In this document: piece by piece, positions 6,015-48,200 of the stretch
Numbering within the stretch: the stretch's first letter is position 1
Layout: each line of letters opens with the position of its first letter
NCBI RefSeq assembly: GCF_964355755.1
Contig: NC_092674.1
Coordinates: forward strand, 7,936,001 to 8,000,000
From: Antedon mediterranea
Taxonomy: Eukaryota; Animalia; Echinodermata
Reading direction: 5' to 3'
DNA length: 64,000 nt
Program-made: the position numbers and the translations under genes
Notes under the pieces: model-generated
The model's input: the letters and a program-made list of their open reading frames with translations, nothing else
Databases searched by the model: none
What the model was told of the DNA's origin: nothing

Positions 6015-6041
6015 TAACTCAATAGGTTTATTTTTGATTTC

Positions 6042-9000
6042 TCAATCAACTGTGTTAACATAAACATGTTCCGGTGCAGGCTTGGTGTTTGCATAAACAT
6101 GTTCACCAGATGAGGATTCAACAGCAGGTTTAATTTCTTCATACTCACTTTCTTCATATTTCTTAGATAGACTTTGATAATTTGTATCTATTGTGCATAC
6201 ATTTTGTTGAACATCAAATTTAGCAGCGTGTTTTCCTGAATCTATACGTCTAAATCTAAAAGAGACCAAATGTATTTATATCAATCAATTAATAAAAAAA
6301 AATTAATAAAAAATAAATATTTCATCAATATCAAACAAGGCCAACAGCCATTAAGTCGCGTGCTACAATGCATAGTGATACCGGACCGACAGACAAACAG
6401 ACCGACAGACAGACAGACCGACAGACAGACGGACCGACCGACCGACATAGTGAACTATACTGACCGAAATTACTGAACATGTTTAAAAATGTTGAAATGT
6501 TTAAAAACATTTATATTTTTTTAATTTACACGTGCGTAGCCTGTCACTTTTGACGTGCTCGTATAACGTAATTTCGAGTTGAAAAGTAAGTCAAGAAAAC
6601 AGAAATCGGGCAAGAAGAGTGCGCAATAACATTTAACGTGCAGTGCGCGCGCAAAAATCTGCGCACTCATGGCAATTTTGTAAACGCTTAAAATTGCCTG
6701 AAACGTACTCTTATTTCATCGAAAATAAATTTTGAAAATTTTAAACGCGCTTACGCATGCGTTACATGCGCTACGCACGTAATTGTATTGCCATATGATG
6801 ATTTATGCCCTGAAATTTATGAGTACCAAATTTTATTTAATTGTGATTCATGGTTGTTAAGATATGATTACAAACGTGATTTCGTTAAATCGTGCGTAGA
6901 CCACGTAATTTTTTATTGCGTAATTTTCGATGAAATAAGAGTACGTTTCAGTCAATTTTAAGCGTTTACAAAATTGCCATGAGTGCGCAGATTTTTGCGC
7001 GCGCACTGCGCGTTAATTGTTATTGCGCACTCTTTTTGCCCGATTTCTGTTTTCTTGACTTACTTTTCAACTCGAAATTACGTTATACGAGCTCGTCAAA
7101 AGTGACAGGCTACGCACGTGTAAATTAAAAAATATAACTGTTTTTAAACATTTCAACATTTTTAAACATGTTCAGTCATTTCAGTCAGTTGGTAGGTTGG
7201 TCGGTCGGTCGGTAAACACTAAGCACGCGACTGCAGCCATCTATATGGCCTTGTTCTTTTAAGTTTTAAGTTTTGTGATATGGATAAAATATCAAGCATA
7301 GTAACAGTTTCAGTGTGTGATACTATATGGATGAAATATCAAGCATAGTAACAGTTTCAGTGTGTGATACTATATGGATGAAATATCAAGCATAGTAACA
7401 GTTTCAGTGTGTGATACTATATGGATGAAATATCAAGCATAGTAACAGTTTCAGTGTGTGATACTATATGGATGAAATATCAAGCATAGTAACAGTTTCA
7501 GTGTGTGATACTATATGGATGAAATATCAAGCATAGTAACAGTTTCAGTGTGTGATACTATATGGATGAAATATCAAGCATAGTAACAGTTTCAGTGTGT
7601 GATACTATATGGATGAAATATCAAGCATAGTAACAGTTTCAGTGTGTGATACTATATGGATGAAATATCAAGCATAGTAACAGTTTCAGTGTGTGATACT
7701 ATATGGATGAAATATCAAGCATAGTAACAGTTTCAGTGTGTGATACTATATGGATGAAATATCAAGCATAGTAACAGTTTCAGTGTGTGATACTATACCG
7801 TTTATACATCATCACGATGACAGCAACTGTGATAACTGCCGCGATTAGTGAGCCAATTACAACACCTATGATGTAACCTGGAAAATATAAAAGGACAAAT
7901 TTTCTTGTTTTATTTACATTACTGGTACTGAATCTAATAAGAATTCCAAACAATGAACTATGTATAATACACACCTTGTTTCTTTTGGTCACAATTTGGT
8001 CCAAAAATGAATTTCTTTGTGTCAGATGTCCCACTAACGTGTAAAAATGATGCCAATACTGTGAATGTATATTCTGTACATGACTCAATTCCTTCACCAA
8101 ACAAAACTTGAGTTTCTGTAGTATTTCTTTGCTGAAATATTCCACCACCTGACAGTTCATAATGGTAGGTCACCTGATAGTTTGGAATGTCACATGTAGA
8201 AGCGTTCCATTTCATCAGTATATGTGTTCCATTTGTGAATGGATTGCTTTTTATCGATGGCTCTATTATTGTAACATAGAATATTAAACAGATTTTTAAT
8301 AAATGAATTATACTAGACATTAAGAATTGTTTCAATTGGCCGATAAAATGTTTTACCCATTTTTTTATATATAAACTTTACACTAAATGACCAACTAGGC
8401 CTAAATGTTAGTAAAATACACTCACACATTTAATGATTTAAGCATACCTGATGGTGCTGTTTGTATCAATATGTCCTCTCCCCAATTACCAACAATCTCC
8501 ATATTATTAACAACTCGAGCGTTTACGACATAAGCAGTACAACTTAATAATCCTGGTAGTTGAACTTCTAATTGAGAACTGTTTGTTGTGTTGACTACAT
8601 TTAGTATACTTCCATCGATGTCTGAGTACTGCACTTGATATCGAAGGATATAGTTACACTGGATTCGATCATAATCACTAGAAACAGACTGAAATACAGA
8701 AAAAAGACAAATACCGTTATTTGAATCTGATACTGGTAACCAATTTCTGTTTGATAATATGTTATATTGTAAGGACAAACAATTAGAGAATACTTTACAA
8801 CTTTACTTGCTTGAACTTACTTAGTTCATTTACAAATACCAATAACGTAATGTATACGGTATTTACATTCACTACTTTAATTAGACTTTCTAGTAGGCCT
8901 CCTAGTTCCGTAATAATTAATTTGTTGATTGTGGAACTTACGATAATGAAGAACAAACAAGAACAATAAAAACATATCTAGTGTACCTTTAAATTCACTA

Positions 9001-12000
9001 TCATCTGATTATCTCCAATGGTTTTTAACTCCATCTCAGGTTCTTCTAAAGGCTCTATTTCATAATATGTAACACAGCGGATTAGAACAGACATACAAAA
9101 TACAACGTGGTGTGCTATGGTAGATATCATAATAATTTTTCTAACAACAAAGAATAAATAAAGGAATATCTCATATAATCCAACAAAAAGTTAGCATACT
9201 GTAAAACAAGTAAAAATTAATAATCTGTGAATGATAAAATCCTTAAAACAAATGTTGGCAATCTTTTAATTCTAGATCTATAGATACTAGATTTATAAAA
9301 TCAGTTGACGCGTTGCTGATTACATGGCTTGGCAGTTTGTTAACTGATTATCTGTAATGTTAGATCTTGCCTGAACATATTGTGTTGGTTGATCCAAGTG
9401 TACTTCTTGGTCCATCTACCTCAATACCACCAACCATCCTCGAAAACTGAGAGTAGAATTGAACTTGCGTATTTGGGATAAGTTTGTCAATGACAATACA
9501 TAAATCATTATATGATTCAGTTATTGATATAAATGAATCCATCTCCGATGATTTATACGAAAGTTTCCGTTTTGTAATTGTTCCTGTTCCATAGTCTTCA
9601 CCAAGAATCCAAGTGACGTCAAATGTTATACTTGCTGCTGTCTGATTTACAACAGTTGGTGGTTTAAAGTTGTATGGTAATGCTATTTATGAAAATAGAA
9701 AACACACTGAACTATTAAAACAGAATACATGTAGGCCTATGTGTTGTTCTGCCGTATAAACTTTACTAAATCATCTGCATATCTAATTAGATGGTTTTAC
9801 TCGCTTTATAGTCGGATGTATAGAGACTATAATGACTTCAGAGATATAGATAATATATGGGCAAGGCAATTGAGAATAATTCATAGAGAAACATACGATA
9901 AATGTTCATGTGGAGCAATTTGTCGATAATCAAGTGTAAATATGATTATGACTATCAATCTGTTTGTGTGTGCATCATAATTTTTGTGCAAATTAATTAA
10001 TTATTCTCTTTATGTGTATATAATCAGGTTTTAAATGTTTTTTTTATATTTACATAATTGACTATTTTGTAGTTTTTGTAGGGCTGTGGATACTCGCATG
10101 TTTTTGCGCATTGTTGCTTTCGCAACCTCTATTTTTGACCGATTGTGTTGATAAAATAAATGGAATGAATAAATAAAACTGTAAAACATGGAAACATTTG
10201 ATGATCCTAGTTGCCTATTGTGAATTTTCTAAATGGAAATCAAATTAACTGCATCTTCAGTTATACAATGAGGTACTACAGAGAAAAGGCAAGATGTATG
10301 TATGTGTATGTATTTAATTAATTAACTTTCATGACAAAATATGTAACTAATAATCTAATCTCTCTCTCTTTTCCGATAATTCTTCAGGCTACTTTGAATA
10401 GCTGAAAGTATACGACATATATAGTTTAATGTCGTGTAGTTACCTATGCTGCAGTTTGGTCCAGCCCAAGCTTCATGGCATCCATTATCGCAACCTCCAT
10501 CTCGATTACAATCTGCCGAAGCTTTGCAGTGACACAGGAAATTACACAAAGCACCAAAGAATCCGGATGAACATGACGGAGGCTCTTTAGAAACCAAGAA
10601 TAATATCATTAGCAATTTCAATGTACTGTACAGTATAAATGATTGTGTAAAAGTCAAAGAAAACTTAATTGAGTAGAAACTCAGTTACCAAAGTAAATGC
10701 ATAGAATTGACCAAAAGGTTTAATTTTCCTCCATTGTCCCATTATATTGTTCGGATTGATTTTTTGGTGAATTTGTGAATTTATTCGGGGTGAATCGCCA
10801 TTCAAATGGATCAGTGGTACATTTTAAACCGCCCAGTGATATAAAGAAAAGTATCTATCTTATTTTTAATAATATACTACCTAAACACGTGTCTCCTGTG
10901 TAACCAGACGAACATTTTGAACCGGAAATGCATCCTGTTGTTTTATTACAAACGCCATTGTCACAGTTACATTTTTGACGACAATCTGCTCCATAGTATC
11001 CAGCATCGCACACTGGAAAACATGAAACAATTGTAGTTTAAAATACTTACATCTTATCTAATATTAAAAACTGTAAAAATCAATCTTATACAGAAAATAA
11101 TAAAACAAAACAACTATACGATTAGTAATAATAATAATACTGAGATATGGTACAAATAGTACGAACAGTAATCACGGTGATAGATGTGAAAGCAGTGAAG
11201 CGATATCAATAGTATCAGCCGATTCTGCTACTGTCAAGAGGTATCTATCTGTAAAACTATGTACAGCATTTCTGCAGACAGCAACGTATATAACTTGCTA
11301 TAGTTGTATAGATAGATACCTCTTACAGTAGCAGAATCGGGTCCTAGTATATGAATTAGCCTAAAGGCAAAATTCGACATATCCCTCCAAACACCTATCG
11401 AAAACCAGTATACTAATCAAGTTTAGTTAGAAAAGTATTTAGGTTAAACGTAAATATTGTAAATAATGTGTATTCATAGTTATGTTACGTCATCATTGGA
11501 TGGCGGTCAATAATGTTAAACTTTATAGTAGTGACCTGTAGGGCTTAAGTTTGAGTTTTCGTCTGACATCAATAGTTGAAAAAATAGTTTGGCATAATGG
11601 CAAAGATAATTAAGAAATGCTTTTTTGCATAATTTATCATAATTTTGGAAATTTATTTATTTTATTAAAACATATTACCTCAACAACATATTTTTTGAGT
11701 ATTAATAGCACTAATAACACTAAAATATAATAATCATTATTTTCATCATAGGCACAAAACATATAAAATGTTCTGACCTGTAGTACAGTCTCTTCCTCCA
11801 AAACCTTTCATACATGTACATCCAACTGGATCAGGTGGACAGAAAAAAACCCCAACGCAATTTCCACCAGTAGAACAGTTACTGTTGCATTCATGGCCAA
11901 AGTTGTTAATTCTACATCCTTAAAAAATACATTAAAAGTATCTCATAAAAGAAACATCTTTACTACATCATAAAAGTATTATTATCTTATCCTTTGTATA

Positions 12001-15000
12001 GTATTGTATGTTTTTAACTGTTGTTATTTTTATTGTAATTTCAACCTTGGAAGGCAAATTTCATTTACAGTGTATTTGACAATAAATTTGAACTTGAACT
12101 TGAACTTGAACTTGAAGTAATTTGACAAATAATTAAAATAAAAACAAATTGTATCAAAAATAAAATTCGGAATTATTTACGGTCATTAATTTTGTTATAC
12201 ACTATCCCTTCACTTTGGAAACATATGTAAGCTAAAAAATGAAAGCAATACTGGATATGTAATTTAGACTTTACTTTTGACTGTTCTGACTTTACGAAAA
12301 AGAAAACATTTGATGATGCGCAAAAACACTAACGAAAGTACAAAATACCAAACTATATTATTTTTGTTGGTTTTCGTGGTGTATTAATTATTTTGATAAA
12401 TTTAGATAAAACAAAAAAGTTGACAGAAATCGAATGAAAAACATATTGCTGCGGAAACACGAATTGTTAAGTTTTTATGTTCTATATCAAACCATTTGGA
12501 ATCGTTTTGTTTGTGGGTGTTCATCATCATCTACATTTATTTTTATTTCAATGGTTTTGATATTTTGCATTTTCGTTTGTGTTTGGGAGATTTGATACCT
12601 ATTTGCTACTTTTTTAATTTTAAAACTGTGGTTTAGAAGTAAAGGTCATGTCTGCCTTAACAATAATTCGCATGGGATGAAAAAGCGCACTCTTCGCCCC
12701 GGCTCCTGAAAATCATGTTAAGAATTGTCAAGAAAAAATTCAGAACTATTTACGGCCATGATTTTGTTATACACGGAGTATTCCTTACTTTATAAGTGAA
12801 AGCAATAGTGGATATGGGAACTTTGTGGTGATCTAGGGTGCGCATCAGAGAGTGACAATGTGCATGAGAGAGAGGATGAAGTCTGTCAATCAGTAGGCAG
12901 TGTTGGAATAATAATAAAACTACAGCTGACTGACGGACTTTTATGAATAATGTGTTGAAAATAGATGATGATGTTTAATGTTTATTGCTTAATAACAATA
13001 ATAAATGTTATGTTTTAATAATTTGTTTACCTCCGCCAAGGATGTATATGTAGTCGATCGCTTGTATTTGTATCTGTCTGTTTGTTTGTTTGCAAGATTA
13101 CTCAAAAAGTGCATATTACAAGATTTTTACGAAAATGAAAATACAGATAAATATGTGATCAAGGACCAGGGTCCCAATTCTGGACCACTTTTTAGTATTA
13201 TTTTCAGACCTGCCAGATAGGAGACAATTCTCAAAAGCCGGCGAGCAGTCTTAAAGTAACAAGTAACCTGAACTTGCATTTTCTCGAGAACTACATGTCA
13301 AAAAAAAACTTCATTTTTGTACAGAAGCAAGAGTTATAATTTGTGATTTGTAATTTTAAAACATAATTTGATTTAATGTACAGTTTTATATGATTAGTTT
13401 TAAAAACCCTATTTCTTTTCAAATGTACCCGTTTATTTTTGGCGTTGCTGTTCTATTGTTAATCAACTGAAACTATTGTTAGTTGAAAGGCTGGTTACGT
13501 AACCATTACACCAAATCACACACAGCTCGCATTTCCGGTGAAATCTTATGTAAGAGAATTTTATAGTAGGCGGAGGTATGCACTCTCGGAGTATCGTTCT
13601 AATTTTAAGATTATTTATGTGATTTCCAGTTTTACAAAAATTGCCTTTAAATCCTGCTAATTATATTATAATACAATATAAATTAAGCTATTACCAGTTT
13701 TACAAGAAGCGCCTTTAAATCCTGCTGGACAAATACAGACGCCCGTCTTATCGTCACATACTCCACCATTATAACATATGGGACAGTCCATTTCACAATC
13801 TGGAGGATTACATTTTGGTGATGGACAAGCTATTAAATAAAAATAATAAAAATAATAATAATTTGTCCGAAAATGTAAACAGTCTCTCTGAAAGACAAAT
13901 TATAAGGTCAATGTGTTTTCATTTATTAGAACCAATTAAATAATGTATACTAATTTACTTTTAATTTAAAATATTTACATATTAGTATTATGTTCCAAGT
14001 GTGTATCCTAATCAGATATCAAACTACCTTGTTGGTAAATATTACTAATTGACGATGAAAATGCTTTTACAAAGATTTACCTCTAACAATGAGTCTCATG
14101 ATACCATGGTTACCATCCAGGCTATCACCTGTATAACATTCATATACCCCATCATCTTTCATTCGTATGTTTTTAATCACAGCAGAAGTATTACCTCTCA
14201 GATTGTGTATTTCCTCACCATAATTATGTCTCCAACGTAAATCTTCAAGATCACCACCTTTACTGAGATTGATAGTGACATACTCTCCGATACCGACTGT
14301 TATCGTTCTATACTCCATTTCAATAGTGGCTGTAAAATAATTATATTGGTAAACAGATAATAGTAATAGCTATTAAACAAAATATTAATGTTTTAAAGAG
14401 TATGAATAAAATTAGATATTATTTATTCATTATCGTCGTCCTCAAATTGAGAATAACATCATGACCTTACTCACCAAAAGAGGATGTCAAGACAATTGCT
14501 GAATTTGTGACTACTCCATTTTTCTTTGCTTCAAAAGAAAATACACCAACTCTTTCACTGTGAGGTAAGTCAGAAACACCTAGAAACGTGTGATCATCGT
14601 GCACTCGGTATCTAATTGTGCAACTTGTGGGAAATATTTTATTGCTTGGCATATTTGTTGTTCTTTCATTACCAGTATTGCCATCCGTATACGGCCCAGT
14701 ATCATCCCAAGTCACGTCTTCCCCTTCCATATTCTTGTATAATATTCCTACTGATAAATCTCGAATGTCTTTGTCGTCGTAAAGAGCGTATCCTCGAAAC
14801 CAACTACCATTATTGGCAACCAGTGGTGTTTCAGAATATGTTGTTATATCTAATGGATCTTTAAAAATAAAACATCATTTTTATGAGGAGAAAAAAAATC
14901 GGTAAATCGCTCGTAACTTTTACAATTTATAGTCTTCAATGACCGGCAACTAAGTACATACCTGAGGAGAATCCGGAATAAAACCTTAAAGAGAGAGCTA

Positions 15001-15040
15001 TAATCACGTAGAACAAGTTTGGAAAACGTTTAGCCAACAT
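6042..15040 (-). CDS. Gene B: complete kinase-less Tie-like receptor (SP-Ig-Ig-EGFx4-FN3x3-TM-ITAM tail), ~820 aa
   Basis: 13 exons: 14962-15040, 14475-14858, 14081-14329, 13695-13829, 11778-11918, 10881-11012, 10444-10584, 9371-9682 (GC donor), 8987-9054, 8448-8688, 7975-8262, 7799-7877 (TM GYIIGVVIGSLIAAVITVAVIVMMYKR), 6042-6255 (tail ...DTNYQSLSKKYEESEYEEI...EHVYANT...EHVYVNTVD*). Sum 2463 nt with consistent phases. Confidence 0.88.
6335..7254. mobile_element. Palindromic non-autonomous element (two opposed HINE/Helentron-like arms) in gene B last intron
   Basis: Termini ACAAGGCCA...TGGCCTTGT, GACA/GACC microsatellites on both arms, and ~260-bp near-perfect inverted arms (~6465-6725 vs ~6922-7185). 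Confidence 0.75.
7281..7797. repeat. 47-bp minisatellite, ~11 copies
   Basis: Unit TGGATGAAATATCAAGCATAGTAACAGTTTCAGTGTGTGATACTATA repeated head-to-tail, abutting the TM-exon donor of gene B. Confidence 0.95.
11219..11340. mobile_element. Small hairpin MITE
   Basis: CCGATTCTGCTACTGT(C)AAGAGGTATCTATCT ... AGATAGATACCTCTTACAGTAGCAGAATCGG inverted repeat. Confidence 0.65.
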
Positions 15041-16459: not shown

Positions 16460-17408
16460 TATTTGTATTATTCTAAAATAATTATGATTGTTAGTAAAAT
16501 CCCGGACATGTCAATACCTGCAAAACATGACAATCAAATGGGTAATAAATTTATTAGTACGGTTTTTAAATATATATATATATTCAAATCTTAATATGAA
16601 CAAAGTGCAGTGGACTGAATTAAATTAAAATTAATAAAATGCTCTACTTTTACTGAATTTTTAAAATGCCGTCATTAAACCATAATAATTTTGAGTAATA
16701 CAAATATCAAAATCAAATCGTAACCGTTTTTCTTTTTGAAAACGTCCAACAGATCTGTTCTAGTTTCAAGTTCAACAAATCAAAATTAAGTCCATAACAA
16801 TAACCATCTCAAATATCCTGAAATATAAAAGTATTGAAGAAACGTTTGTATAATATATTTTTTTTTCTTTTCTGGTTCACCACCACATTTATTCATTCAA
16901 TGTTTCATTACATATTTTCTAAAAATGTTCTACCATTTTTCGTTATTTTCTGTTTTTCCTCATTGATATCTTAATTTTAACCTTAGTATCATACCATCAA
17001 TACAAAGTATTTACTTCTTAACATTTCTTGTGTTGAATCCTCTATTTAAAATAACCAATTGTATATTAAGTAAAATACTTAACTACATACATCAAATGTT
17101 TACTGCTATTAACCTGCACACACACATAGTGTAGACACATGTAAACATACACATTCATTTATATATATTATATCCTTTCCACAAATGTTTACATTTGCAT
17201 AATATTATACATTAATTATTCGTCAGACTTAGTCCTAAAGGCATACAATACAAACCTTTCAGTTGCTGAACAAAGATGCATAAGTTATGGTGAAGTACAG
17301 TCGCATCTTACAATTATACTAGGCCCAAAAGCTGAAAAAGAAAACACATTACTGAGTAAGATAATACATGATTGGAAGTTTGCGGATTTAATTGTATTTA
17401 AAGCTTAC

Positions 17409-17713
17409 CTTTGATGGTGTTTGTTGATCCAAGTGCACTACTTGGGCCTTCTACTTCAATACCACCAACCTTCCTCGAAAATTGAGAGTAAAATTGAACT
17501 TGCGTATTTGGGATAAGATTATTAATAATAAATACATCATCATCTGGTTCAGTTACTGAAATAAATGAATGTTAGAGTGGATGCTGTCTGGTAGACGGTT
17601 CAGAACTGTACGGTAATGCTATAATTATGGAAAAAAAAAGTACAGAAGATTATTCCAAAGAAAAGATAGGTTTATATAATTATGTTTTAGTTTGGAAATC
17701 GTTTAGCCGACAT
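17409..17713 (-). pseudogene. Collapsed remnant of a B-like paralog (signal-exon stub plus internally deleted FN3-1 exon)
   Basis: ATG at 17713 reads MSAKRFPN* (B: MLAKRFPN). 17409-17618 is a deleted and frameshifted FN3-1 exon (ALPY...NLIPNTQVQFYSQFSR..GGIEVEGPSSALGSTNT). Region ~18490-18670 resembles B's upstream region ~15645-15795. Confidence 0.75.
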
Positions 17714-18193
17714 ATCCATTAAATTTCAGGATAGGTTGTATAATACAATGTATAGCATTAGCAATAACTGCAATAAGTGAAAGACTGACAGTTACAATTA
17801 TTGTCACTATCGTTACCCAATACTATAAAGTATTTTTTTGTAAATTAAGTTGTTGTTCATCAACTTCTGACTGATTTTTGTTTCCTCATACAATTGTACA
17901 GTGCTGCAACTTGAATAGATTCCTCCATGATTCTATACGCTATAGTTTATTTTAGCATAGCGGAGATAAGTAATAGACATTTAAGGTAAATCAGCAAAGA
18001 AAGAGCTGAATAATGAAAATTAATAATATGTTTTTCTATTGTAACAGTATCGTACAATGGGCCGGAGGCTTGTACTCATTGAATAATCAAATGAAATGAA
18101 AATTAATGACAGTGTTTATCGAGAATTAATACTTTGTATTAAAAGCACTGTATATTTCTGACATTTCTTATTATATTAGTTGTTTCTATCTTA

Positions 18194-20693: not shown

Positions 20694-23600
20694 TCATTTT
20701 TCAACTATGTTATCATAAATATGTTCCGATAAAGGCTGTTGAGGGTTAGCGTAAACGTGTTCAGGTGGAGAAGTAGTACCAGCAGTAGGATTAATGTCTT
20801 CATATTGACTTCCTTCATATTTTTTAGACAAACTCTGATAATCTGTATCTATTGTACAAACATTTTGTTGCACAGTAGAAGATGTATTTCCATAATTTCC
20901 TGAATGTATACCGGTACGTCTGTATCTAAAATTAACAAAGTGTAGTATTGTTGGTAATATTCACTCGTCGATTTAAAGATGGTAAAGCAGTCAGTATGTT
21001 CTTTATAAGTAATATCTAATTTATAAAGATAGTAATAGTCTAACAATGATACTATACCGTTTGAATATCATCACGATGATAGTAACTGTGATAACTACAA
21101 CACTTAGTGAGGCAATTACAACTCCTATGGCGCAACCTGGAAAAATAAAATTACACATTTTTGATAACTTATTTTGAATAAAGCTTTGGTTTACAAGCTC
21201 GATATTTCTCTATATTTCATTGTTAGTTACTAGTACAAATCCCAAAGACAAATCTAAAAACGTGAAAAAAGTATCACTATTAAAAATGAATGCGGTTTCA
21301 TGTGAACTGCGCGTAAAAGGAGTCCGATATGATAAGGGTTTTAAGGAAATACTACTACACACCTTGACCAGAGTCTGCAGGATCACAATCTGTTTCAAAC
21401 ATGAATTTCTTTATGGCAGATGTCCCATTAACATTTGAATATGACGCTAATACTTTGAAGGTATATTCTTTATTTGACTCAATTCCTTCACCAAACAAAA
21501 TGTCATTGTTTGTTGTAGTCCCTTGCTGAAATATTCCACCTGACAGTTCATAATGGTAGGTCACCTGATAGTCTGGTATGTCACACGTAGAAGTTTTCCA
21601 CTTCATCAGCCAGTGTGTTCCATTTGTGAATGGATTACTTTCTATCGATGGCTCTAATAATTGTAATAATTCAATGATTAAAAATACATAATAATAATAA
21701 TAGTTATTATTCTTCACATCATAATTGTCGATAAGTTTTTTATAAGATCATAATATGAATAATAAACCAACCTAATGGCGGTGTTTGTACCGTTATCTCC
21801 TTTCCCCAATTACCAGCAATTTCCCAGTTATTTACAACTCGAGCATTTACGACATAAGCAGTACAACTTGATAATCCTGATAGTTCTACTTCTAATTGAG
21901 AACTGTTTGTTGTGTTGACTACATCTTGTATATTTCCATCTATGTCAGAGTATTGCACTTGATATCGAAGAATATATTCACACTGTATTTTATTATAATT
22001 ACTAGAAACAGGCTGAAATACAAGATTACATAATAATGTCAATTTCATCTGAAATGGTATTGTACTCTTCAACAATGTTTGCATTCATCAAGCTAATTTG
22101 TGAAGAAAAACAATGATGACCTAGCGAGCTCTCTGAGAACGTATAGATTAAAATAATATATTTATGAACAATTCTAACAAGGCCATATACATGGCTGCCG
22201 TCGCGTGCGCAAATTTGAGTTTGTGTTTACTGACCGACCGACCAACCGACCGACATAGTGAGCTATAGAGTCGCGTTCGCACGCGACTAAAAATGTTTAG
22301 AAACATTTATATTTGCCTCCAAGTATTAATATCCAGTGTCAAAATAACGACAAAAACAATTAGGAATATGAGTTAGTGTTTACCGACCGACCAACTAACC
22401 GAAATTGCAGCTGGAAATGTTAACAAATGTTGAAAAATAATAAAAAACATTTATATTTGCCTCCAAGTATTAATATTCACCGTCAAAATAAAAAAATAAA
22501 TGAATATGAGTTAGTGTTTACCGACCAACCGACCGAAATTGCTCAAAATATTTAAAAATGTTGACACATTTTTAAAAACATTTATCTTTCCCTACAAGTA
22601 TTAATATCTACTGTCAAAATAACGAAAAAATATGAATATAAGTTAATGTTTACCGACCGACATAGTGAGCTATATCAAACACATTGTTACAATACCTTTA
22701 AACTCACGATCATCTTCTTATTTTCAGTGGTGTTTACTTCTATCTCAGGTTCGTTCAAAGGTTCTATGTTATAAAATGGATTAGTGCTGAGCAAATCATA
22801 TATTAAACAAATAACACGTTGTCTAATATGGTATACTTTGGTAAATATTTACTTTATGTACTTTGCAAAAAGAAAGAAAATGAATAACAAAAACATTTTG
22901 TGTTATATGAGAATATAAAGTATGCTCATTTGCACAAAAAATAATGTGTACAAACAAATAATAAATGACATTTATTTAAAATTATCATACCAAAGAGATT
23001 ATAATAAAACCAAATAGGAACGATACAAAATAAATTGCTACAGCATACTGCAAAATCGTGTACATACAGTAATACCATGGACCTATAAATTAGGTCTAAT
23101 TTATAGGTCCATGATAATACATAACGTAGTAGGCTAATTTGCTGAATGACCATGCTTACCAGAACATATTGTGTTGGTTGATCCTAGTATACTTCTTGGT
23201 CCATGTACCTCAATACCACCAACCATCCTCGAAAATTGAGAGTAAAATTGATATTGAGTATTTGGAATGAGATTATCAATAAATAAATCATGATGCGGTT
23301 CTTCTATTGACATAAATGAATTCATTTGAGATGATTTATACGAAAGCTTTCGTTGTGAAATTGTTCCAGTTCCATAGTCTTCATCAAAAATCCAAGTGAC
23401 GTCAAGCATTAAGGCGGTTGCAGTCTGGTTTACAACAGCTGGCGGTTTGAGGCGGTATGGTAATGCTGTGTATAAAGAAATGCACTACATTATCTCATAT
23501 CAAAAAGGTGTACTACTAACAGATAAAGAAAGCACCATGATGTAACTACCACGTTGCGACTTGCAAGGAGTATAATATAATAATTATTATGCCTTAAGAT

Positions 23601-29091: not shown

Positions 29092-32000
29092 TTATTTTTC
29101 TTCCGATACTCTGTTGCCATCATCACACCTTCTCAGATAACACAATGCAGCGTCATAGCAAAAGTTGTATTGGATCTAAATTAGTAAAATAATAATAAAA
29201 ATACTGTTAAATACAAAGTAATACGTTCACGTAATGTGCTTATTAGATTAGTTAATCACTCTTCCCTGGTTAGTCCTACGATTGTTACGTATATAATTTT
29301 CTTATAAACTAAATTTCCTCACTATTAAAACTAAATAAAAAAAAAACTTGTCTTCTCACCTCAGAGTCCACCATAGTGGGGCATGCTGACCGCAGTGCTT
29401 TAAGTGTTTGGAATACATCTACTACCTTTTCATCTCGCATTTTCTCGATCATAGAATAAACTAGACAGAACAAGCCTGATCTGGAAACACCGTCTCTAGA
29501 GATTGATATAGATTGTGTTTTTATAGTTTCCATAAAACTTAATTTAAAACTGACCAGCTTACAGGCCCGTCGTGTTTCCACAGCTACAAATTAACTGATA
29601 ATTAGCCGATAACCGGGGTTTAACTGATTCTACTCGAGAAAAATTAACCGATAATTATCTCATTCAAATCGGATAACTATCGGGAAAATGCGATAAAGTT
29701 TTACCTTTGACCTGAAGAAAAATGGTTGTGTTGTGAGTGTGTACCTGGTTGTTTTATAATGAATGATCATGCGCACTTTATTTTTTAATTGATTACCTGA
29801 TTGGTTCACAAATTTTTTTTTTGGATGCGAAAACACATGTCATGTGTCTACGTTGAAAATACAAAATGTTAACATAATTATAAAATTTCAATATTTTTAG
29901 TATTACATAATACGATGACAAACTGCTGTAGAAAGAATACGTTACATTTTCCGTTACTAATAGGCCTATATTAATATTCTAATAACAAAATAGAGAATAT
30001 TTCAATTTATACCCACGTGCAATGAACAGTGATCGGTGTATTGATAGAAGACGTAGCACGTCCTTCCATTATCGTCCTAATGAATTTAACAAATGCATCA
30101 ATTTCAGGAACAGGTTTATTTTCTGGCCATTGGTTAACTTCATACAGAATAATTTGCTGTACATTGTTATCCTATAAACACAAAACAGAGAGTTATTAGT
30201 TTAAATTGTACTTACAAACATCTATTTTATTGTTCTTTGTTCAGATTTCTGTTTTCGCGATGACAATTTCATTTAAACGTGTCATCATGTCTTAGGAATT
30301 ATGTAAACAATTGTTCTATTGCAGATACTCCAGTAACTACATCGCTTACTACAATAAGGATAATCTTAGTTGGTTTCAGTGCAGAGGTGTAGGTATCTAT
30401 TATATTGTAATCTTCAAAAGAATATTGATTATATTTGTTATAAAACTTTAAAAATATAGATACTGCTGTAACTCATGCATTACAATTATTTTGAGATGGT
30501 ACTTCAGTAAAATACAACAAGAAAAAAATTTAGTAGGTCTAACCTTTTTTAGATTTAATTTTCTCTCAGTCATAAATTCGTTCTGAAAGTTTGACTTAGC
30601 AGTCACGGTTAATTCACCAAATGGTTGTTTTTGGTTGATCTTTTTCGGGAGGTACATGGCACTCGTTAGGTCTTCCATCTCATGTAGTTGTACAATGACG
30701 TCAGATTTACAATCAAACACCAAACGCCAAAAATCGATCGTGGTATCCGATAATGGTGTCCGAGTAACAACAAAAGCACGGCGACCCTTGTGACGCTAGG
30801 ATATAAATAAAAGATAACACCGGAAAATATTTGTGTTAAAATAAGTATTTAAAAAAGAGTATTTCTTCTATAATTGTCTTGCAGGTGAATATTACTATCT
30901 TTACAAATTGCTTTTGAGATCTTTTTTCATTTTATTACGTTCTCATATTAATTGAGAAACAACATGTTTTTAGGTTCAGTTTGATTTCACATAGCGCTAG
31001 CTTATGCCCCTCGCTTTCCTTTGAATGAAACGTTCATGTCCTCATACCTCAATGAGCGCAGCATTTACGTAATCTGCACCACTGCCAACATCCAGATTTA
31101 GTTGAAAACATCCTTTAGTCACTGTGATAAATTAAATAATTTTAAGAAGCTTAATATCAGAAATTATAATGTTTTTTACTCAAATATGAATGAAAGAAAT
31201 AAATGTTTATTTGAATTTGAATTGAATTGAATTAATTGATCTACTAATAATCGGGCTTATGACAGTCGAGGTTCTAATCCACATCAAAATCGTGATCATA
31301 TTTAATAATCTTTGATGAACACATGCAATTCAAAATTGCTATAAAAAACCGACTGAAAATTACTACATTACACAATTGAACCGTTCTCAATTGTGACGTT
31401 ATGTTCTTGCTGTTTAATAATAACCACATTATATTTAAAAACTTTCTTTATCAATAATAGTCAACGTATAGTAATAATTGGTCAGTTGTTTGCCCTACTT
31501 TTACGTCATTTGTACATACCGAGAATTCTCGGGTACATTATCATCAACATTGTTAATTACACTGATGTATTAAGTATGTAACTTACGGAACAAAACATTA
31601 TGAAATGTGTCCTGGCAACTGACATCTTGTCGTCTAGTTTGTGACGCAAGATCTTCACCAGGATGTGGAAACAAATTACGCAACGTCTGCGAATAAATGC
31701 ATTGTTTAATACAAAATGTTTAGGATATCCGAATCGTATATTCGTCATCGATGTCACAACCAACATTGCTACTATTAGTCATAGCCATTTCCTTTTTTTT
31801 TTTCTTTTTATGCGTGTGCTTAAAACGCAGGCGAAAGAAATCCAATTTACTATTTTTGTATTTTCTTCTTTTTTAAAATTTTCATAACATAACGTGTTAG
31901 GCAATGTATTGCTCCCCCTTTTGTATGAAATTCATTAGGTAATTTAAGAATTGGCAGTCAGTTTTTATGTGTGTTAAAAACTCGAGAGAAAGAAACATAT

Positions 32001-35000
32001 TATTTCATTGGGAAATATTTTTTTTTTTCTTTTCTATGTATTTTATCATTTTTTTAATAACTTTATGAATTCAATTTTTCGGTTTTTGTTTATGCTTTAT
32101 TAATATAAGACTAATTAGTTAAACAAGACAGTCAGACAGTAATTCTTTGTAATATAGAGAGATTCGTTCTGGTGTTGATTCTGAGAGGATAATGGGTAAT
32201 TAATTTAAAAATTAGAACAAATCATGCTTTACCTCAAATTCTTTCTTTAATTGATGCTTCGTTACATAGCCATGCAGTTCGGATAACTCAATAGGTTTAT
32301 AGTCTTTATTTTCAGATTCTTCATAAACAAGGTCCGGCTCAGGCTCAGGGTCAGCGTATACGGGTTCAGTGGAAGAAGCAACAACTTTTGACTTAATATT
32401 AGTATATTCACTGTTATTTGCAAATTCCGTGACGTCATAAACATGTTCAGGTTCCGGCTCCAAATCAGAATCTGGCTGCGTGTATACGGGCTCAGCACTG
32501 TTGCAATAGGCATGTTCAGGCTCCTTTTCTGGTTTTGTGTATACATACATGGCAGAAGATTTAGTGGCAGCAGTAGACTGAATATTTTCATATCCTCTTT
32601 CTTTTTCAGACACATTTTGATATTCCGTATCTACCGTGCTTAGGCCTAAATTTTGTTGACTAGTTGAAGATTTACCAACGTTGCCTTTGGGAAACAAGTG
32701 TCTAAATCTGAAATGAACAAATCATAATGTTTAAAAGAATGTATGTGTACGTCATCACCATTTTTATATTCTCTGTAATTGTTTTTTTTTTTAATTTTGT
32801 TAATGCAGATAGTTGTAATATTTACAATTTAGTATGATATTATTTTTGTAATACTGTACTTATTATCTGAAATATGTTTGTAATAATATTTCTGTAAAAA
32901 GTATTATAATACTTACCGTTTAAATATTACCAAAATGATTGCTACTGCGGCAACTACGGAAATTAGTGAGCCAATTACAACTCCTATTACGGTACCTAGA
33001 AAATTATTTAATGCTTATTATGTTCATAAAGTAGTCATTTGAGGAGGGGGGGGGGGGGTAGCAAAACAGTACAAAGGAAAATGTAAGAAATTAAGGGAAA
33101 AATAGAAGTAATATGATTAAAGAAATATATATATTTGAAGACAAATATTACTGATTATTTGTAATGTATTTAATTATGATGTGAAGGAATAAAGTGGTGG
33201 TTTACGCCACAAAGGAGAGAAAAAAACGTAGTCATTAGGCATAAGTTATAAAAAAAAAACAATGGCTTTAATAGAAAAAAATATTTATTTTTTTATATTA
33301 AAATGTTGTTTACCTATATAATCCATTCAAAGTTCAATATTTTTCTTCGTAGGACTAAGATTTTCGATTTTTATAGTTACTGAATTCTATTCACAAAGCA
33401 CAAACAGTAAGGAACTAACCTTGCTTCTTTTGATCACAATCTGTACCAAAGATAATGGTCATTACGTCAGATGTCCCTCTTACGTTTAAATAAGACGCTA
33501 AAACTGTGAATGTATATTCTATACACGAATCAATGCCTTCGTCAAAAACAACTTCAGTTTCTGTTGTAGTTCCTTGCTGAAATATTCCACCTGATAGTTC
33601 ATAATGGTAGGTCACCTGATAGTCTGGAATGTCACATGTAGAAGCGTTCCACTTCATCAGTAAATGTGTTCCATTTGAAAATGAATTGCTTTGTATCGAT
33701 GGCTCTATTATTTGAAAAAAGAATAAATAGGCCTATACTATATTAAAAATAATTACTGTGATTATTAGGACTATCCTATGAGTAAATCTTTAGATTTAAT
33801 ACAATATAGTTAATAATAGGAATAAGCATACCTGAGGGCGATGTTTGTACCGTTATGTCCTCTCCCCAATTACCAGCAATCTCTAAGTTATTAACAACTC
33901 GAGCGTTTACGACATAATCTGTACAGCTTGATAATCCTGATAGTTGAACTTCTAATTGAGAACTGCTTGTTGTGTTGACTACATTTAGTATATTTCCATC
34001 TATGTCCGAGTACTTCACTTGATATCGAAGAATATAGTTACACTGAATTCGTTCATAATCACTAGAAACAGGCTGAATTATATAAAATAATCCGTCAGAA
34101 AGAATGAGAATGAGAACTTTTTCAGACATAGGCCAATAGAAATTTAGCTTAAAGGGGGGATTTGGGTTTAAAATGAATAGTAAAAAATGTAAAATATATT
34201 TGTTTGTCTCCTGAACGGTAAAAGTTTCAATTTATATAAGCGCCCAGTGAAGCAGAACGAAGGCTGTGAAATCAGGCCAGATTAAAAGTGCAGCTACGGC
34301 AAAATCACACTGTGGTTACAAAATAGGAAATTCGTGAAATGGTCCATCTTCCGACGACTCGTTATCATTAACCATATCAATTACTTTTGTAAAATTATAC
34401 TTATCTGATGTAATTTTAGTCGGTCTTCCCATTTATAAAGTCAATTTTTTATGAAAATTCATCAAAACAGTGAAAAATTAGATATGTTTGCACTTTACGT
34501 TTGCCGATTTTCACACCGACTTAGGGAAAAATCAAAATCAATGAAGCGTAACGTATACTGTACATTCCTGCTGAGGATCGAGCGAGACGACGATACACGT
34601 GCTCTCTCTGCTGCCCATGCTTGGCATCGTCACGTTATAAGCAGATACAACAATACCAAACTGGTCGGGTCGAGTATACCCCGTCTATAATCACAACATG
34701 AACGATGTACAGTATTTGATTGAAGGTCGACTCGACCTTCCGGAATGGTATAGATAATATAGCTCGAATGAGAGAGTTGGAATATTTGTGTAGTGCAGCC
34801 TATAGTAAAATGCCTGGTAGTATCAATTCGCATAGGGTCTACTACACTAGCTAGCTCAATTTTTAACTGGGCCGGATCGGCTAGGTCTCCTTCCTACTAC
34901 CTGGTCTACTTGCTTGATGCATGAGTATTCCGCTTTTTTGGAGAATAAACTAGCCTAAGCCTATTTTATTTTAGGCCTACTTAGACGATCGGGACACCAT

Positions 35001-38000
35001 ACGTGTGGACGGCGGCGATCGGACCTTGTTTTGCTTCAATATTTACAGCCGATTTTGTAGAACGTTTTAGGTTTAGATTGTTTAGGAGTTTGGTTGATAG
35101 GATGGGTTTTGTTATTTATGGGCCAATCGTCTAGTAGTAGGCTAGCTAGGCCCAGGGACCCCATTGTTTTAACGTAGCCATCGTGGCGTGGAATCCCTAG
35201 TCAGAATGGCTCTCGCCCATTAGGCTAGGCCTAGAGTAGTATTGTACGTGAAGCCGATAATACGATCTGTACTATAGTATAGAGGTATAACAATAGTATA
35301 ATTTATGACTCCGTAATCTGTACTAAATTTTGTATTTCATTAAATGTCAAATAAATATATGCTACTACTGTTATTATTACACTTTAGGCCTAGCTTAGAA
35401 AATCTACAAAAAAATGTATTTCACAATGATCGGGTGGTCGTCGTTTGACAGGGGAGAGAGAGTTTTGAATCCACTGGTGACGTGATTTTGTGAATATCTC
35501 ATGAATATTAATGAGCTTCCCTAAGCTGCAGAAAAACAGACTTTCCATGAATTTACCCTAAAATGTATATGAAATTTAATTTTTTTAATTTCTCGTTATT
35601 ACTTCTTCATTCTGACATGTCTATATTGTTATAATATTTTTTATTTAATAAATAAACGATATTTAAAAGCAATTTTAAACCCAGAATCCCCCTTTAATCC
35701 TGTTAGCGGATAAAACAAGTTTACGAAAATTCCATTTACGTAAGTGAATGATTTGTGGAATTATCCTTGTCTACAGCAGCTCTCCGTAAAAAATGTAGGC
35801 CTATACAACACGTAAGTCAATTATAATTATATACAATTTTCAAACCTACTACTGTAGTTCAGGGGAATGGGTTTGTTTCCCTTTACTGGGATTGGAGTAA
35901 GAAACCGGCATCTATAAACGGAAAAACAGGAAACAAGATTGATATACTATTATTTACACCAAGCAAAACGTGTGAACAAAAAAAAATACTTTAAAACCTC
36001 TAAACACAATTTGACCTGGTTTTCTTCAACAGATTTCAGTTCTATCTCAGGTTCTTCCAAAGGTTCTATAACATAAAGAATGAAATTGCTGAGCAAACAA
36101 AAATCATGACGACATGCTTTATTAAATCGCTTCTGTATAAATATAGTTTAAAATGTATTCTCAAAATGCACATTATAAAAATGTAAAAGTAGTCCAATAT
36201 GTTTCAATTTTATAACTGACCTTCACAGATTGTGTTAGTTGTTCCAAGTGCACTTCTTGGTCCATCTACCTCAATACCACCAACCATCCTCGAAAATTGA
36301 GAGTAAAATTGGTATTGTGTATTTGGGATGAGATTATTTATAACAAATAATACATCGTTATCTGGTTTAGCCATGGATATAAATGAATCCATTTGAGATG
36401 ATTTGTACTCAAGCTTCCGTTTTGTGATTGTGCCTGTTCCATAGTCTTCACCAGGAATCCAAGTGACGTCAAAAGTTAAGGTAGTTGCTGTCTGATTTAT
36501 ATCACGTTGCGATTCAGTGTGGTATGGTAAAGCTATTTAATAAAACACATATTTGTGTATATTTTTAACAAAAACGGTGCTTTTTAATTTAACTTATATT
36601 AATAAAACAATATAAACATGTAAGCATGGAAGGTGATTTTTTTTTCGTTCACCTTTCTTCACCCTCTCCATTTCTCCTTTCTCCCAACTTTAAATTCAGA
36701 AAAGTATCTCAAAGCTTAGGGTCTAATTATTCCTCATAATATAAATAAATGTGTGTCGTTACCTATGCTGCAATTTGGTCCAGCCCAAGCCTCGTGACAT
36801 CCATTAGTACAACTTCCATCTCGATTACACTCTTCAGAGTCTTTGCAGTGACATGGGAAGTTACACAAGACACCGAAGTATCCGGATTGACATGACACAG
36901 GCTCTTTACAAAAAAAAATATGATTATTATGTTTGTCATTAAAACTATTTAACTCCAAAACTAATACAAGCTTCTGCAATTGTCTAAATCTAAAGAACAT
37001 ATGCTATAGGTTCTTTGCTCAATATTATCACATTCGGTACAGCTCATTAGGAAGTATACTCTACAGTTAGAGGGAAAATGGCACTGTGGTCATGTTAACA
37101 ATATAGATTATCTGATCAAATTCCTAGAAAGTAGGAAACATTTTGCCATTTTTTCCTGACTGTTCATGGTTCTCACACAAAAATAAGACTGTACAGTATT
37201 TTCAAGGTTGTTTTTCTTTCTACATGGTAAGTTAACAATATTTACAAAGGAAACATAAAAATGATAATAAAAGAAAATGGTATCGAATTGTCAAATATCA
37301 TTACCTAGACACCTGTCACCGGTGTAGCCAAACAAACATGTTGACCCAGAAGTACATCCTGTATCTTGGGTACAACTGATGATATCACAGTTACATTTTT
37401 GCCTACAACCAGCTCCATGGTAACCATCCTCACAAACTTAAAAACATAAAACAAAGAACTTTTGTAGGAAAACTCATTTCACAAAGGTGACAAGCAGAGC
37501 ACAAATAATGGAAAATATAGGCCTATTAATATACTTGACCAATTATAAAGTATTAATTAGGTATACATTATAAAACATACTATTCAACAAACCATTACCA
37601 TAAATAACGAAAATTGTTTATTTTTAGCATAATTGTTTTTCTGATCTTTGCTGATACATTTAATGATAATATAGACCTAATTAAAATCTAACCTCTTTCA
37701 CAATCACTTCCTCCAAAACCATTGATGCATGCACAACCAACTGGATCAGGTGGACATAGAAGAGATCCTTGACAATTCCCAACAGAAGAACATACAGCTT
37801 TGCATTCACGACCCCAGTTGTTATTTCCACAGCCTATTAGTAAACAATCATTTCCGTATCAGTATATTCTATTTACACATTGCTATTTTGTAATAATCAA
37901 AACATAATTAACATAAATCACATGCTATGTTTGATATGTTTTTAAACATGAATTTGTCTTTACCAGTTTGACAATAATTGCCTTGAAATCCTGCTGGACA

Positions 38001-40555: not shown

Positions 40556-41434
40556 CTTAACTATGATTAGAAAATGTTGACTTGTAGCTAATACTAAAAT
40601 AACTTGTGAATAATAAGGAAGTAAAGCATATTTAAAAAATCAGTTTTCCAGCAAGTATCCCGGGATGTTTGTAATATAGAACCATTGTTTGCATTGTTAC
40701 AGAGTTTATATGCTTCAATTGATTTTGGCAATAATAACTAGAAAAATCAACGCCCACACCAAACTAATATATGCAGGCCAAACAAATTCTCTCGACTGTG
40801 GCTAATTATTCAATTGTACCTGATTGATGTATTTCGCTTCTTAAATCTTTTACCTCATAAAGGATCGAATCAAAATGATAATAAACCAGCAACAGATTCT
40901 AAAGTAAAATAAAATCAGTTTGTGTTTTATGAGTGAGTATGTGTGTGTATTTTGTGCTTGTAAATATTAAAATACAGATTGTAATGACTAAAAACAATCA
41001 TTAATTTTAAAAGAAAACAATATTAATTATTTCGATTTTTTAAATAGTCACAAGTAACACAAGTCACAAATCAGTTTATTTCATCCATAAAGAAAAAAAA
41101 ATACACAGCAAAAAATATACAAAAGGATCAGGTAGACTTCCATTAAGGCCAAAAGCCGCATGCATGGATACCATCCGAACATTTTAAATAATATATAATT
41201 CTGTAGAAAGTAAAATAGGGCCTACTAGGTTTTGCCTTTTCTAGGATTTCCCTCTGATATTGGTTTCAAATTCGTATGTAGAAAATTTCGGTCAATAAAC
41301 TTCTGACGACAAGTAGGCTTAAAAAAATAACGACAATCATTCGTACTTTATTCACAACACATATCCCCACCAATCTTTCTCCGTTAAGAAAATGTTTAAG
41401 AAATTATTTAATGATTTATAAGGTATATTGCAAG

Positions 41435-45266: not shown

Positions 45267-48200
45267 GATGACAAACTGCTGTAGAAAGAATACGCTACAT
45301 TTTCCTTTACTAATATATTAATATATTCTAATAACAAGTAGTAGAGAATATTTAAATTTATACCCACGTGCAATGAACAGTGATCGATGTATTGGTAGAA
45401 GACGTAGCACGTCCTTCCATTATCGTCATAATGAATTTAACAAATGCATCAATTTCAGGAACAGGTTTACTTTCTGGCCATTGGTTAACCTCATACAGAA
45501 TAATTTGCTGTACATTGTTATTCTACAAACACAAAACAAGGAATTATTAGTTTGAATTTTACTTACTGTTATTTGTTGTTCTTTGTTCAAATTGCTGTTT
45601 TCGCGATAACCATTTTATTTAAACGTTTTCTGTTTTTTTCCCTCCTGTCTTAGGAATTATGTAAACAATTGTTCTACTGCAATTACTCCATTAATTACAT
45701 CGTTTACTGCAATAGGAATAATCTTAGTTGGTTTCAGTGCAGAGATGTAGGTATCTATTATAATGTAATCTTCAAAAGAATCTTGCTTACATTTGTCTGT
45801 AAAATGTAAAAATATAGATACTGCTGTAACTCATGCATTACAATAATTTTGACATGGTACTTCAACAAAATATAACTAGAAAAAATGTAGTAACCTTTCC
45901 TAGATTTAATTTTCTCTCAGTCATATATTCGTTCTGAAAGTTTGACTTAGCAGTCACGGTTAATTCACCAAATGGTTGTTTTTGGTTGATCTTTTTCGGG
46001 AGGTACATGGCACTCGTTAGGTCTTCCATCTAATGTAGTTGTACAATGACGTCAGATTTAAAATCAAACACCAAACGCCAAAAATCGATCGTGGTATCCG
46101 ATAATGGTGTCCGAGTAACAACAAAAGCACGGCGACCCTTGTGACGCTAGGGTATAAATAAAAGATAACACCGGAAAATATTTGTGTTAAAATAAGTATT
46201 TAAAAAAGAGTATTTCTTCTATAATTGTCTTGCATGTGAATATTACTATCTTTACAAATTGCTTTTGAGATCTTTTTTCATTTATTACGTTCTCATATTA
46301 ATTGAGAAACAACATGTTTTTAGGTTCAGTTTGATTTCAAATAGCGCTAGCTTATGCCCCTCGCTTTCCTTTGAATGAGACGTTCACGTCCTCATACCTC
46401 AATGAGCGCAGCATTTACGTAATCTGCACCACTGCCAACATCCGGATTTAGTTGAAAACATCTTTTAGTCACTGTGATAAATTAAATAATATTAAGAAGC
46501 TTAATTAATTGATCTACTAATAATCGGGCTTATATAGTCGAGGTTCTAATCCTCATAAAAATCGTGATCATATTTAATAATCTTTGATGAACACATGCAA
46601 TTCAAAATGGCCATAAAAAAACCGGCTGAAAATTACTACATTACACCATTGAACCGTTCTTAATTGTGACGTTATGTTCTTGCTGTATAATAATAACCAC
46701 ATTATATTTAAAAACTTTTTTTATCAATAATAGTCAACGTATAGTAATAATTGGTCAGTTGTTTGCCCTACTTTTACGTAATTTGTACATACCGAGAATT
46801 CTCGGGTACATTATCATCAACATTGTTAATTACACTGATGTATTAAGTATGTAACTTACGGAACAAAACATTATGAAATGTGTCCTGGCAACTGATATCT
46901 TGTCGTCTAGTTTGTGACGCAAGATCTTCACCAGGATGTGGAAGCAAATTACGCAACGTCTGCGAATAAATGCATTGTTTAATACAAAATGTTTATCCGA
47001 ATCGTATATTCGTCATCGATGTCACAACCAACATTGCTACTATTAGTCATAGCCATTTCCTTTTTTTTTTTGCTTTTTATTTGTGTGCTTAAAACGCAGG
47101 CGAAAGAAATCCAATTTACTATTTTGTCGTTAAATATGTTCTTCTTTTTTTAAATTTTCATAACATAACGTGTTAGGCAATGTATTGCTCCCCCTTTTGT
47201 ATGAAATTCATTAAATAAGACTCATTAGGTAATTTAAGAATTGGCAGTCAGTTTTATGTGTGTTTAAAACTCGAGAGAAAGAAACGTATTATTTCATTGG
47301 GAAATATTTTATATTTTTTTTTCTTTTCTATGTATTTTATCATTTTTTAATAACTTTATGAATTCAATTTTCCTGTTTTCGTTTATGCTTTATTAAATAA
47401 GACTAATTAGTTAAACAAGACAGTCAGACATTAATTCTTTGTAATATAGAGAGATTCGTTCTGGTGTTGATTCTGAGAGGATAATGGGTAATTAATTTAA
47501 AAATTAGAACAAATCATGCTTTACCTCAAATTCTTTCTTTAATTGATGCTTCGTTACATAGCCATGCAGTTCGGATAACTCAATAGGTTTATAGTCTTCA
47601 TTTTTAGATTCTGTGACATCATAAACAAGGTCCGGCTCAGGTTCAGGGTCAGCGTATACGGGTTCAGTAGAAGAAGCAGCAACTTTTGATTTAATATTAG
47701 TATATTCAATTTTATTTTCAAATTTTGTGACGTCATAAACATGTTCAGGTTCCGGCTCTAAATCAGAATCTGGCTGTGTGTATACGGCCTCAGCACGGTT
47801 CACATAGGCATGTTCAGGCTCTTTCTCGGGTTTTGTGTATACATACATGGCAGAAGATTTAGTGGCAGCAGTAGACTGAATACTTTCATATTCTCTTTCT
47901 TTTTCAGATACATTTTGATATTCCGTATCTACAGTGCTTAGGCCTATATTCTGTTGACTAGTTGAAGATTTACCAACGTTGCCTTTGGAAAACAAGTGTC
48001 TAAATCTGAAATGAACAAATCATAATGTTTAAAAGAATGTATGTGTACGTCATCATCATTTTGATATTCTCTGTAATGGTTTTTTTTTAATTTTGTTAAT
48101 GCAGATATTTGTAATATTTACAATTTAGTATGATATTATTTTTGTAATACTGTATTTATTATCTGAAATATTTTTTTAAGAATATTTCTGTAAAAAGTAT

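Follow-up and report, generated by a model that had tools for sequence, protein, structure and literature searches.

The window, i.e. the whole 64,000-nucleotide stretch of Antedon mediterranea DNA analysed here, is a tandem array of genes A, B, C, D and E accompanied by plus-strand 5' fragments, the 3' end of gene A lying beyond it. The features of gene B, and those of its neighbours that bear on it, are as follows.

6042..15040, minus strand: gene B, 13 exons with an 820-aa open frame (open frame, splice sites, Pfam and a Tie2 match)
7799..7877, minus strand: transmembrane (TM) exon of gene B with a phase-2 donor; aa about 724-748, hydropathy peak at aa 723-751, a helix without charged residue
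6042..6255, minus strand: terminal tail exon of gene B, homologous to the exon that encodes the juxtamembrane segment in the receptor phosphatases of the family, and shortened by a stop
6132..6188, minus strand: ITAM consensus D773-x-x-Y776-x-x-L779-x8-Y788-x-x-I791 (aa 773-791), from pattern match and paralog alignment
6084..6104, minus strand: EHVYANT with Y804, candidate pYxN Grb2-type site; YxN in 5/5 phosphatase-less tails
6051..6071, minus strand: EHVYVNT with Y815, candidate pYxN Grb2-type site; Tyr in 5/5 phosphatase-less tails, Asn in 4/5
6042-6044, minus strand: stop codon of gene B
6015..6041, minus strand: post-stop relic of phosphatase juxtamembrane coding sequence, reading EIKNKPIEL in frame
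20694..20925, minus strand: tail exon of gene C, a phosphatase-less paralog, with DTDYQSL-x8-YEDI, EHVYAN, EHIYDN and a stop; its splice to the TM is inferred
32233..32706, minus strand: juxtamembrane exon of gene D (RefSeq P0039) with DTEYQNV-x6-YENI and 12 Tyr in all
47525..48004, minus strand: juxtamembrane exon of gene E with DTEYQNV-x6-YESI, D2 only

The exons of gene B (15040-14962, 14858-14475, 14329-14081, 13829-13695, 11918-11778, 11012-10881, 10584-10444, 9682-9371, 9054-8987, 8688-8448, 8262-7975, 7877-7799 and 6255-6042, all on the minus strand) encode a signal peptide, Tie-type Ig1-Ig2-EGF repeats, three FN3 domains, the TM segment and a 72-aa tail. All acceptors are AG and all donors GT, bar one GC at 9371. 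Pfam recognises Ig, EGF_2 and fn3 in these exons, with no match for the Ig1 exon, and the Ig2-EGF part matches Tie2 (E 1e-35; 2GY5, 4K0V, 9LV4). Atlas matches were all under 0.9 and were counted as no evidence.

In the remainder of the array, genes D and E carry a Tyr-rich juxtamembrane exon longer than that of B and C, and the sole phosphatase-like domain after it is D2 (Pfam Y_phosphatase). In gene D, this exon splices directly to the D2 pseudo-phosphatase domain, D1 being absent, and in gene E the Ig1, Ig2 and D2 sequences are interrupted by in-frame stops. These two Tie-head receptors (29100-40560 and 44300-54940) are recent duplicates, nearly identical in their FN3 region and 90% in the juxtamembrane one. 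Between C and B, an orphan fragment (17400-17720) comprises an FN1 exon with a frameshift and a start resembling a signal peptide, and RefSeq P0018 joins the EGF exon of gene C to it. On the plus strand, 5' parts of paralogs lie at 58300-60900 (58300-58690 holds an Ig1 with a frameshift, 59992-60898 the exons of Ig1 and Ig2), and an additional signal-peptide exon is found at 42385.

The sequence-only reading of this DNA had noticed the tyrosine motifs and would have been refuted by a tail exon that is not joined to the TM exon, which is not what was observed. Acceptor 6255 (AG, phase 2) is compatible with TM donor 7799. In run X1, a 543-nt contig spans 6003-6256 and then matches the TM-exon letters from 7800, and an X1 record of equal length and depth ends within the FN3 exon, matching 7973-8173 without a difference. 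Run X1 is taken as RNA by guess, since it is not on record as such and the sole support is its exon-exon contigs. One contig of one study (X1, probable RNA) thus shows FN3-TM-tail splicing together with the stop, which makes the ITAM motif of gene B part of a membrane protein's cytoplasmic tail. In run X2, unlike X1, the sequence extends from the tail exon into the intron, and no single contig covers the entire gene B mRNA.

RefSeq model P0023 carries the same TM-tail junction and is identical to the end of the gene B model; being built on the same assembly, neither it nor P0001 is independent of that assembly. RefSeq divides gene B after the FN2 exon into P0001 (547/549 aa identical to the start of our model) and P0023, and because of this split its models miss the ITAM receptor. 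The models of gene C, P0003 and P0005 finish without the tail exon, P0024 (gene C) reading into the intron instead. At 9371, the FN1 exon of gene B has a GC donor (exonic G followed by gcaaga), where paralog C has GT; this donor, whose use is predicted only, is a possible cause of the broken model. Joints 8262/8448, 9054/9371 and 8686/8987 were matched at 90% likeness, and these joints, including those at the GC donor and at the FN2 junction where RefSeq breaks, may stem from paralogs. Over 7800-11100, the summed contig depth of run X2 at 90% likeness is about 5-40x higher in exons than in introns, a ratio that is not a copy number and suggests many more paralogs than RefSeq models found. With regard to the TM-tail intron, a 47-bp minisatellite of 11 copies, 99% identical (7278-7797), begins directly after the TM-exon donor, and a MITE-like palindrome (6459-7189) has arms of 210 nt that are 98% complementary and, outside them, further arms of 68 nt. 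The palindrome is flanked by GACA/GTCG microsatellite elements, which recur at 16354, 39723 and 40176.

The terminal exon translates as FRRIDSGKHAAKFDVQQNVCTIDTNYQSLSKKYEESEYEEIKPAVESSSGEHVYANTKPAPEHVYVNTVD, followed by the stop, and its ITAM segment is DTNYQSLSKKYEESEYEEI; C-terminal to it come EHVYANT and then EHVYVNTVD at the very end. The core consensus (D/E)xxYxx(L/I)x6-8Yxx(L/I) is present with a spacer of 8, so that the ITAM, EHVYANT and EHVYVNT of the sequence-only reading were all found again on the minus strand. The available part of PMC7026191 also gives an extended consensus, D/E-x7-D/E-xx-Y, from which gene B (D-x8-D) is off by one residue. Among 200,000 composition-preserving shuffles of the 70-aa exon, the strict pattern arose in 0.032% (p ~3e-4, a post-hoc test), and the loose pattern Yxx[LIV]x6-12Yxx[LIV] in 3.6%. 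The strict regex also matches the extracellular Ig2 of gene B (aa 158), a place where no ITAM can function. The tail contains no NPxY, has no Pfam match and found no PDB match at E 10. At Y804 and Y815, it carries the YxN consensus of Grb2 SH2 ligands, pYxN being described as such a ligand in the accessible text of PMC9279350, and both are candidate sites.

To place the tail in its family, 47 proteins were collected from protein searches, cluster look-ups and a profile search, of which 45 belong to Antedon or Anneissia japonica. P0006, P0026, P0011 and P0029, the members of full length, are tandem-domain receptor phosphatases with KNRY, WPD and HCSAGAGRTG; a catalytic D1 (KNRY, WPD, HCxxGxxR) plus D2 is found in paralogs P0006 and P0026 and is lacking in gene B. 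The best solved matches of P0026 are PTPRS, PTPRA, LAR and PTPRE, and it shares 48% identity over 216 aa with P0023; the ectodomain, TM and juxtamembrane segment of gene B are homologous to those of this family. No phosphatase exon was found between the tail of gene B and gene A. Downstream of the stop, the frame continues as EIKNKPIEL, its last 17 bases being identical to the KPIEL codons of gene D, which identifies the tail as the juxtamembrane exon of a phosphatase, ended early by a stop. Gene B resembles the tandem-domain receptor phosphatases in that its paralogs carry D1 and D2 and its tail corresponds to their juxtamembrane segment, but it differs from them by the loss of the phosphatase domains, by the Tie-type head of its family, and by the ITAM of the derived clade, which intact members lack.

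The earlier claim that gene B borrows cytoplasmic kinases in place of its own did not hold as regards the missing enzyme: a search of the window in six frames and of the 47 collected proteins gave no kinase motif and, judged from its paralogs, gene B lacks a tandem tyrosine phosphatase rather than a kinase. The reading of gene B as a Tie kinase that lost its kinase was rejected. Gene B shares with Tie2/TEK the Ig2-EGF part, followed by three FN3 domains and a TM segment, but no kinase domain occurs in it or in the 47 collected proteins. The layout of Tie2 includes a third Ig, at the place of which gene B has extra EGF exons. In Anneissia P0010 and P0013, Discoidin (F5/8 type C) domains precede the Tie-type head, possibly an ectodomain variant or a gene-model fusion.

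A profile search with the tail among 1.84 billion representatives gave six matches, namely, four Antedon family members plus P0046 and P0047; the latter, unnamed repeat proteins, were dropped as compositional matches, which leaves no relative of the tail outside Antedon in that search. The intact members P0006, P0011, P0026 and P0029 end in YVNV/YVNF, and P0042 in YANVK. PTP-alpha has a C-terminal YxN Grb2 site, which these C termini resemble.

Within the family, the phosphatase appears in successive states of decay. D1 is intact in P0006, P0026, P0011 and P0029; P0030 has a D1 without KNRY but with the catalytic Cys and WPD, and P0028 a D1 without the catalytic Cys. D, E, P0021 and P0042 retain D2 only, P0025 has a short tail, and the series ends with the phosphatase-less terminal tails of B, C, P0020, P0022 and P0027. 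Nineteen juxtamembrane regions were scored, 12 of them decayed or phosphatase-less and seven of intact type (four complete and three partial models); left out were isoform duplicates (P0032, P0033, P0036-38), models without TM, P0023, which equals gene B, and P0003, P0005 and P0024, which stop at the TM or shortly beyond it and have no tail exon. The strict ITAM is found in 6/12 of the former versus 0/7 of the latter, a Val-tolerant version in 10/12 versus 0/7, and the first half-site in 12/12 versus 0/7. Genes D and E have undergone a 2-residue deletion, and their spacer of 6 is still within the consensus. The ITAM is broken in two of the four D2-only genes (P0021 and P0042), while P0030 has a near-ITAM yet retains the catalytic Cys and WPD.

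Intact Antedon members have YDEV at the place of the second half-site, BLASTP pairing ESEYEEIK with DSAYDEVK of P0026, whereas the first half-site has no counterpart in these members. We infer that intact phosphatases without ITAM gave rise to decayed ones with ITAM, and that the second half-site derives from the older YDEV site, the first one being new. Intact phosphatases of Antedon and Anneissia alike carry ExV/IYxN sites: EHVYANT has an ENVYAN-type counterpart in Anneissia intact phosphatases, and EHVYVNT an EPVYGN/EPIYGN counterpart in intact phosphatases. The YxN sites are older than the ITAM and common to intact phosphatases, and their conservation beyond gene B extends from the phosphatase-less tails to these enzymes.

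In a D2 tree of 11 rows, the seven decayed rows group as a single clade (100/100) on a long stem (0.37), outside which fall the intact Antedon and Anneissia rows; the tree covers D2-bearing members only, and phosphatase-less ones cannot be placed on it. An ectodomain tree of 25 rows separates Antedon from Anneissia (100/100) and leaves the Antedon members unresolved, except that P0042, a D2-only member, joins intact P0026 (93/98), a hint of exchanged ectodomains. The association between ITAM and phosphatase loss is probably one evolutionary event; since one origin suffices for the pattern, it is not a replicated correlation.

The retention of the first half-site also invites an inhibitory reading, namely, that it is a switch-type T-x-Y-x-x-L/V motif recruiting a cytoplasmic phosphatase such as SHP2, so that the receptor would have borrowed a phosphatase and still be inhibitory. 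Thr occupies position -2 in 11/12 derived tails, the half-site is retained in 12/12 with the second one lost in two, and TEYQNV of genes D and E matches TxYxx[VI], which is the ITSM consensus. However, gene B itself has TxYxxL, not TxYxx[VI], its tail contains no [ILV]xYxx[ILV] ITIM, and the acidic residue at -3 and the paired spacing suit an ITAM better. We regard this inhibitory reading as very unlikely.

The five phosphatase-less tails, which are paralogs of one species, all keep both ITAM Tyr, the Leu/Ile anchors and a spacer of 8 residues, tyrosine spacing across the family being a check that the sequence-only reading had proposed. In all, 21/70 positions are invariant, including D773, Y776, L779, Y788, I791, Y804 and Y815; all five anchors and 4/5 Tyr are kept, the sole variable Tyr being Y783 in the non-anchor spacer. 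The enrichment of anchors within the ITAM span is modest (hypergeometric 0.04), since 11/19 of its positions, non-anchors included, are invariant. Between B and C, which are close paralogs (tail dS 0.58), the tail has a dN/dS of 0.43 (bootstrap 0.21-0.88), like other exons. The X1 allele shows eight listed differences (nine counted) from the window, comprising N775H, Q777E, E790G, four silent ones and one in the UTR; the replacements leave the five anchors untouched, which would occur by chance at ~0.38 and is not significant. As for the proposal that pYEEI serves as a Src SH2 ligand, YEEI is indeed present in gene B, but it is seen in only 1/12 derived tails and is abolished by the E790G allele (YEGI) of runs X1 and X2, so that this point is not a conserved feature. 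In the ectodomain, dN/dS over 10 pairs each is 0.49-0.77 for Ig1 versus 0.24-0.46 for Ig2; although Ig1 diverges more, its values stay below 1 in these pairs, and positive selection on it is not shown.

Such moderate constraint would also suit a truncated decoy or trafficking receptor, competing for ligand or forming dimers with intact phosphatases, in which YxxL/I would be sorting signals or an inherited ITAM look-alike. The cluster is of the birth-and-death type, with pseudogenes and fragments, a stop shortens the tail, itself an ancestral segment, the tail dN/dS is similar to that of other exons, and the strict regex finds a chance match in the ectodomain. A pure decoy has, however, no need of an ITAM or of downstream Tyr sites, yet all five phosphatase-less paralogs retain the full ITAM and both Tyr sites, with the stop right after them, and we consider a decoy decidedly unlikely.

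The fixed spacing bears on a further reading, in which single-SH2 adaptors (Grb2, Nck, Vav, Src-family SH2) would bind individual tyrosines of the tail, used as a general platform for phosphotyrosine docking, with tandem-SH2 Syk secondary or absent, as in CEACAM3. According to the available text of PMC7026191, uptake through CEACAM3 proceeds without need of Syk, one pTyr binding Nck, Vav, PI3K and Src kinases. In the crinoid family, the E-x-V/I-Y-x-N sites are the oldest feature, found in the intact enzymes of both species, and the D2-only paralogs have multiplied such Tyr repeats to 11-16 Tyr, two of them breaking the ITAM. On the other hand, the five tails hold the 8-residue spacing and the Leu/Ile anchors while positions +1/+2 vary, a combination predicted by tandem-SH2 binding and unneeded for single-site binding. 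This docking reading therefore seems rather unlikely to us.

On balance, we favour as probable the activating reading, i.e. that gene B is a phosphatase receptor of the crinoid Tie-head family remodelled into a likely activating receptor, its ITAM coupling to Syk/Shark and its YxN sites to Grb2. Ligand-driven clustering would lead a Src-family kinase to phosphorylate the tail; the pY776/pY788 ITAM would then recruit a tandem-SH2 kinase of the Syk/Shark type, and the pY804/pY815 YxN sites would recruit Grb2. The chemistry of this scheme is borrowed from known systems, the model mechanism being Src42A-Draper-Shark, as set out in the available part of PMC4503800. In the accessible portion of PMC13344425, amphioxus SYK phosphorylates an ITAM receptor, oyster work is cited, and a figure legend gives accessions for sea urchin SYK and ZAP70. 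The same portion reports amphioxus SYK as an NF-kB suppressor as well, so that Syk binding does not necessarily equal activation.

Like Draper/CED-1/MEGF10, gene B encodes a single-pass, EGF-rich receptor that has an ITAM but no enzyme domain. The head of the former is of the EMI/NIM-EGF type, whereas that of gene B is Ig-Ig-EGF-FN3, its tail lacks NPxY and its ancestry is separate; a Draper/MEGF10 orthologue was rejected, given the Tie-type head and the tail without NPxY. Clustered invertebrate receptors with ITAM/ITIM-like tails, identified by consensus, are described in the accessible texts on Hydractinia Alr (10.1101/2022.03.04.482883) and Botryllus FcoR (PMC12582321). Both resemble the gene B family as clustered, lineage-specific paralogs with ITAM-like tails, but the counterpart there, as far as these texts go, is an ITIM receptor, while the Antedon counterpart would bear its own phosphatase. 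CEACAM3/CEACAM4, in the available part of PMC7026191, likewise illustrate a recently evolved paralog with an ITAM or ITAM-like motif in a family where another member signals oppositely; they are unrelated to gene B in sequence, and phagocytosis of bacteria is shown for these CEACAMs. A literature search, mostly outside subscription papers, returned nothing on the Antedon family, nothing on a receptor phosphatase that gave rise to an ITAM receptor, and no study of an activating/inhibitory receptor pair in crinoids. Class names for sea urchin phosphatases, reportedly given in a 2006 survey, found no match among the papers listed.

Since ITAM receptors are already known in invertebrates, the motif alone is ordinary. 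As read from the paralogs, the unusual point is its origin: the array holds a graded series from an active receptor phosphatase without ITAM to an enzyme-less receptor with ITAM. We can propose, tentatively and with less confidence than the activating reading of gene B itself, that a paired-receptor system has arisen in which one Antedon clade of Tie-head phosphatases gained a juxtamembrane ITAM and then lost D1 and D2 stepwise, giving activating Syk-coupled receptors. The intact paralogs, with a shared ligand-binding head, would form the inhibitory arm through their own phosphatase, replacing ITIM/SHP recruitment, and the tandem array would retain intermediates of this sign reversal. Gene B thus likely turns signalling on via a recruited kinase, whereas the intact members of the family would turn it off. 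Should the motif recruit Syk, gene B would show an ITAM arising from an existing phosphotyrosine site and the sign of receptor signalling flipping through domain loss, and the family would offer a candidate activating/inhibitory receptor pair in crinoids.
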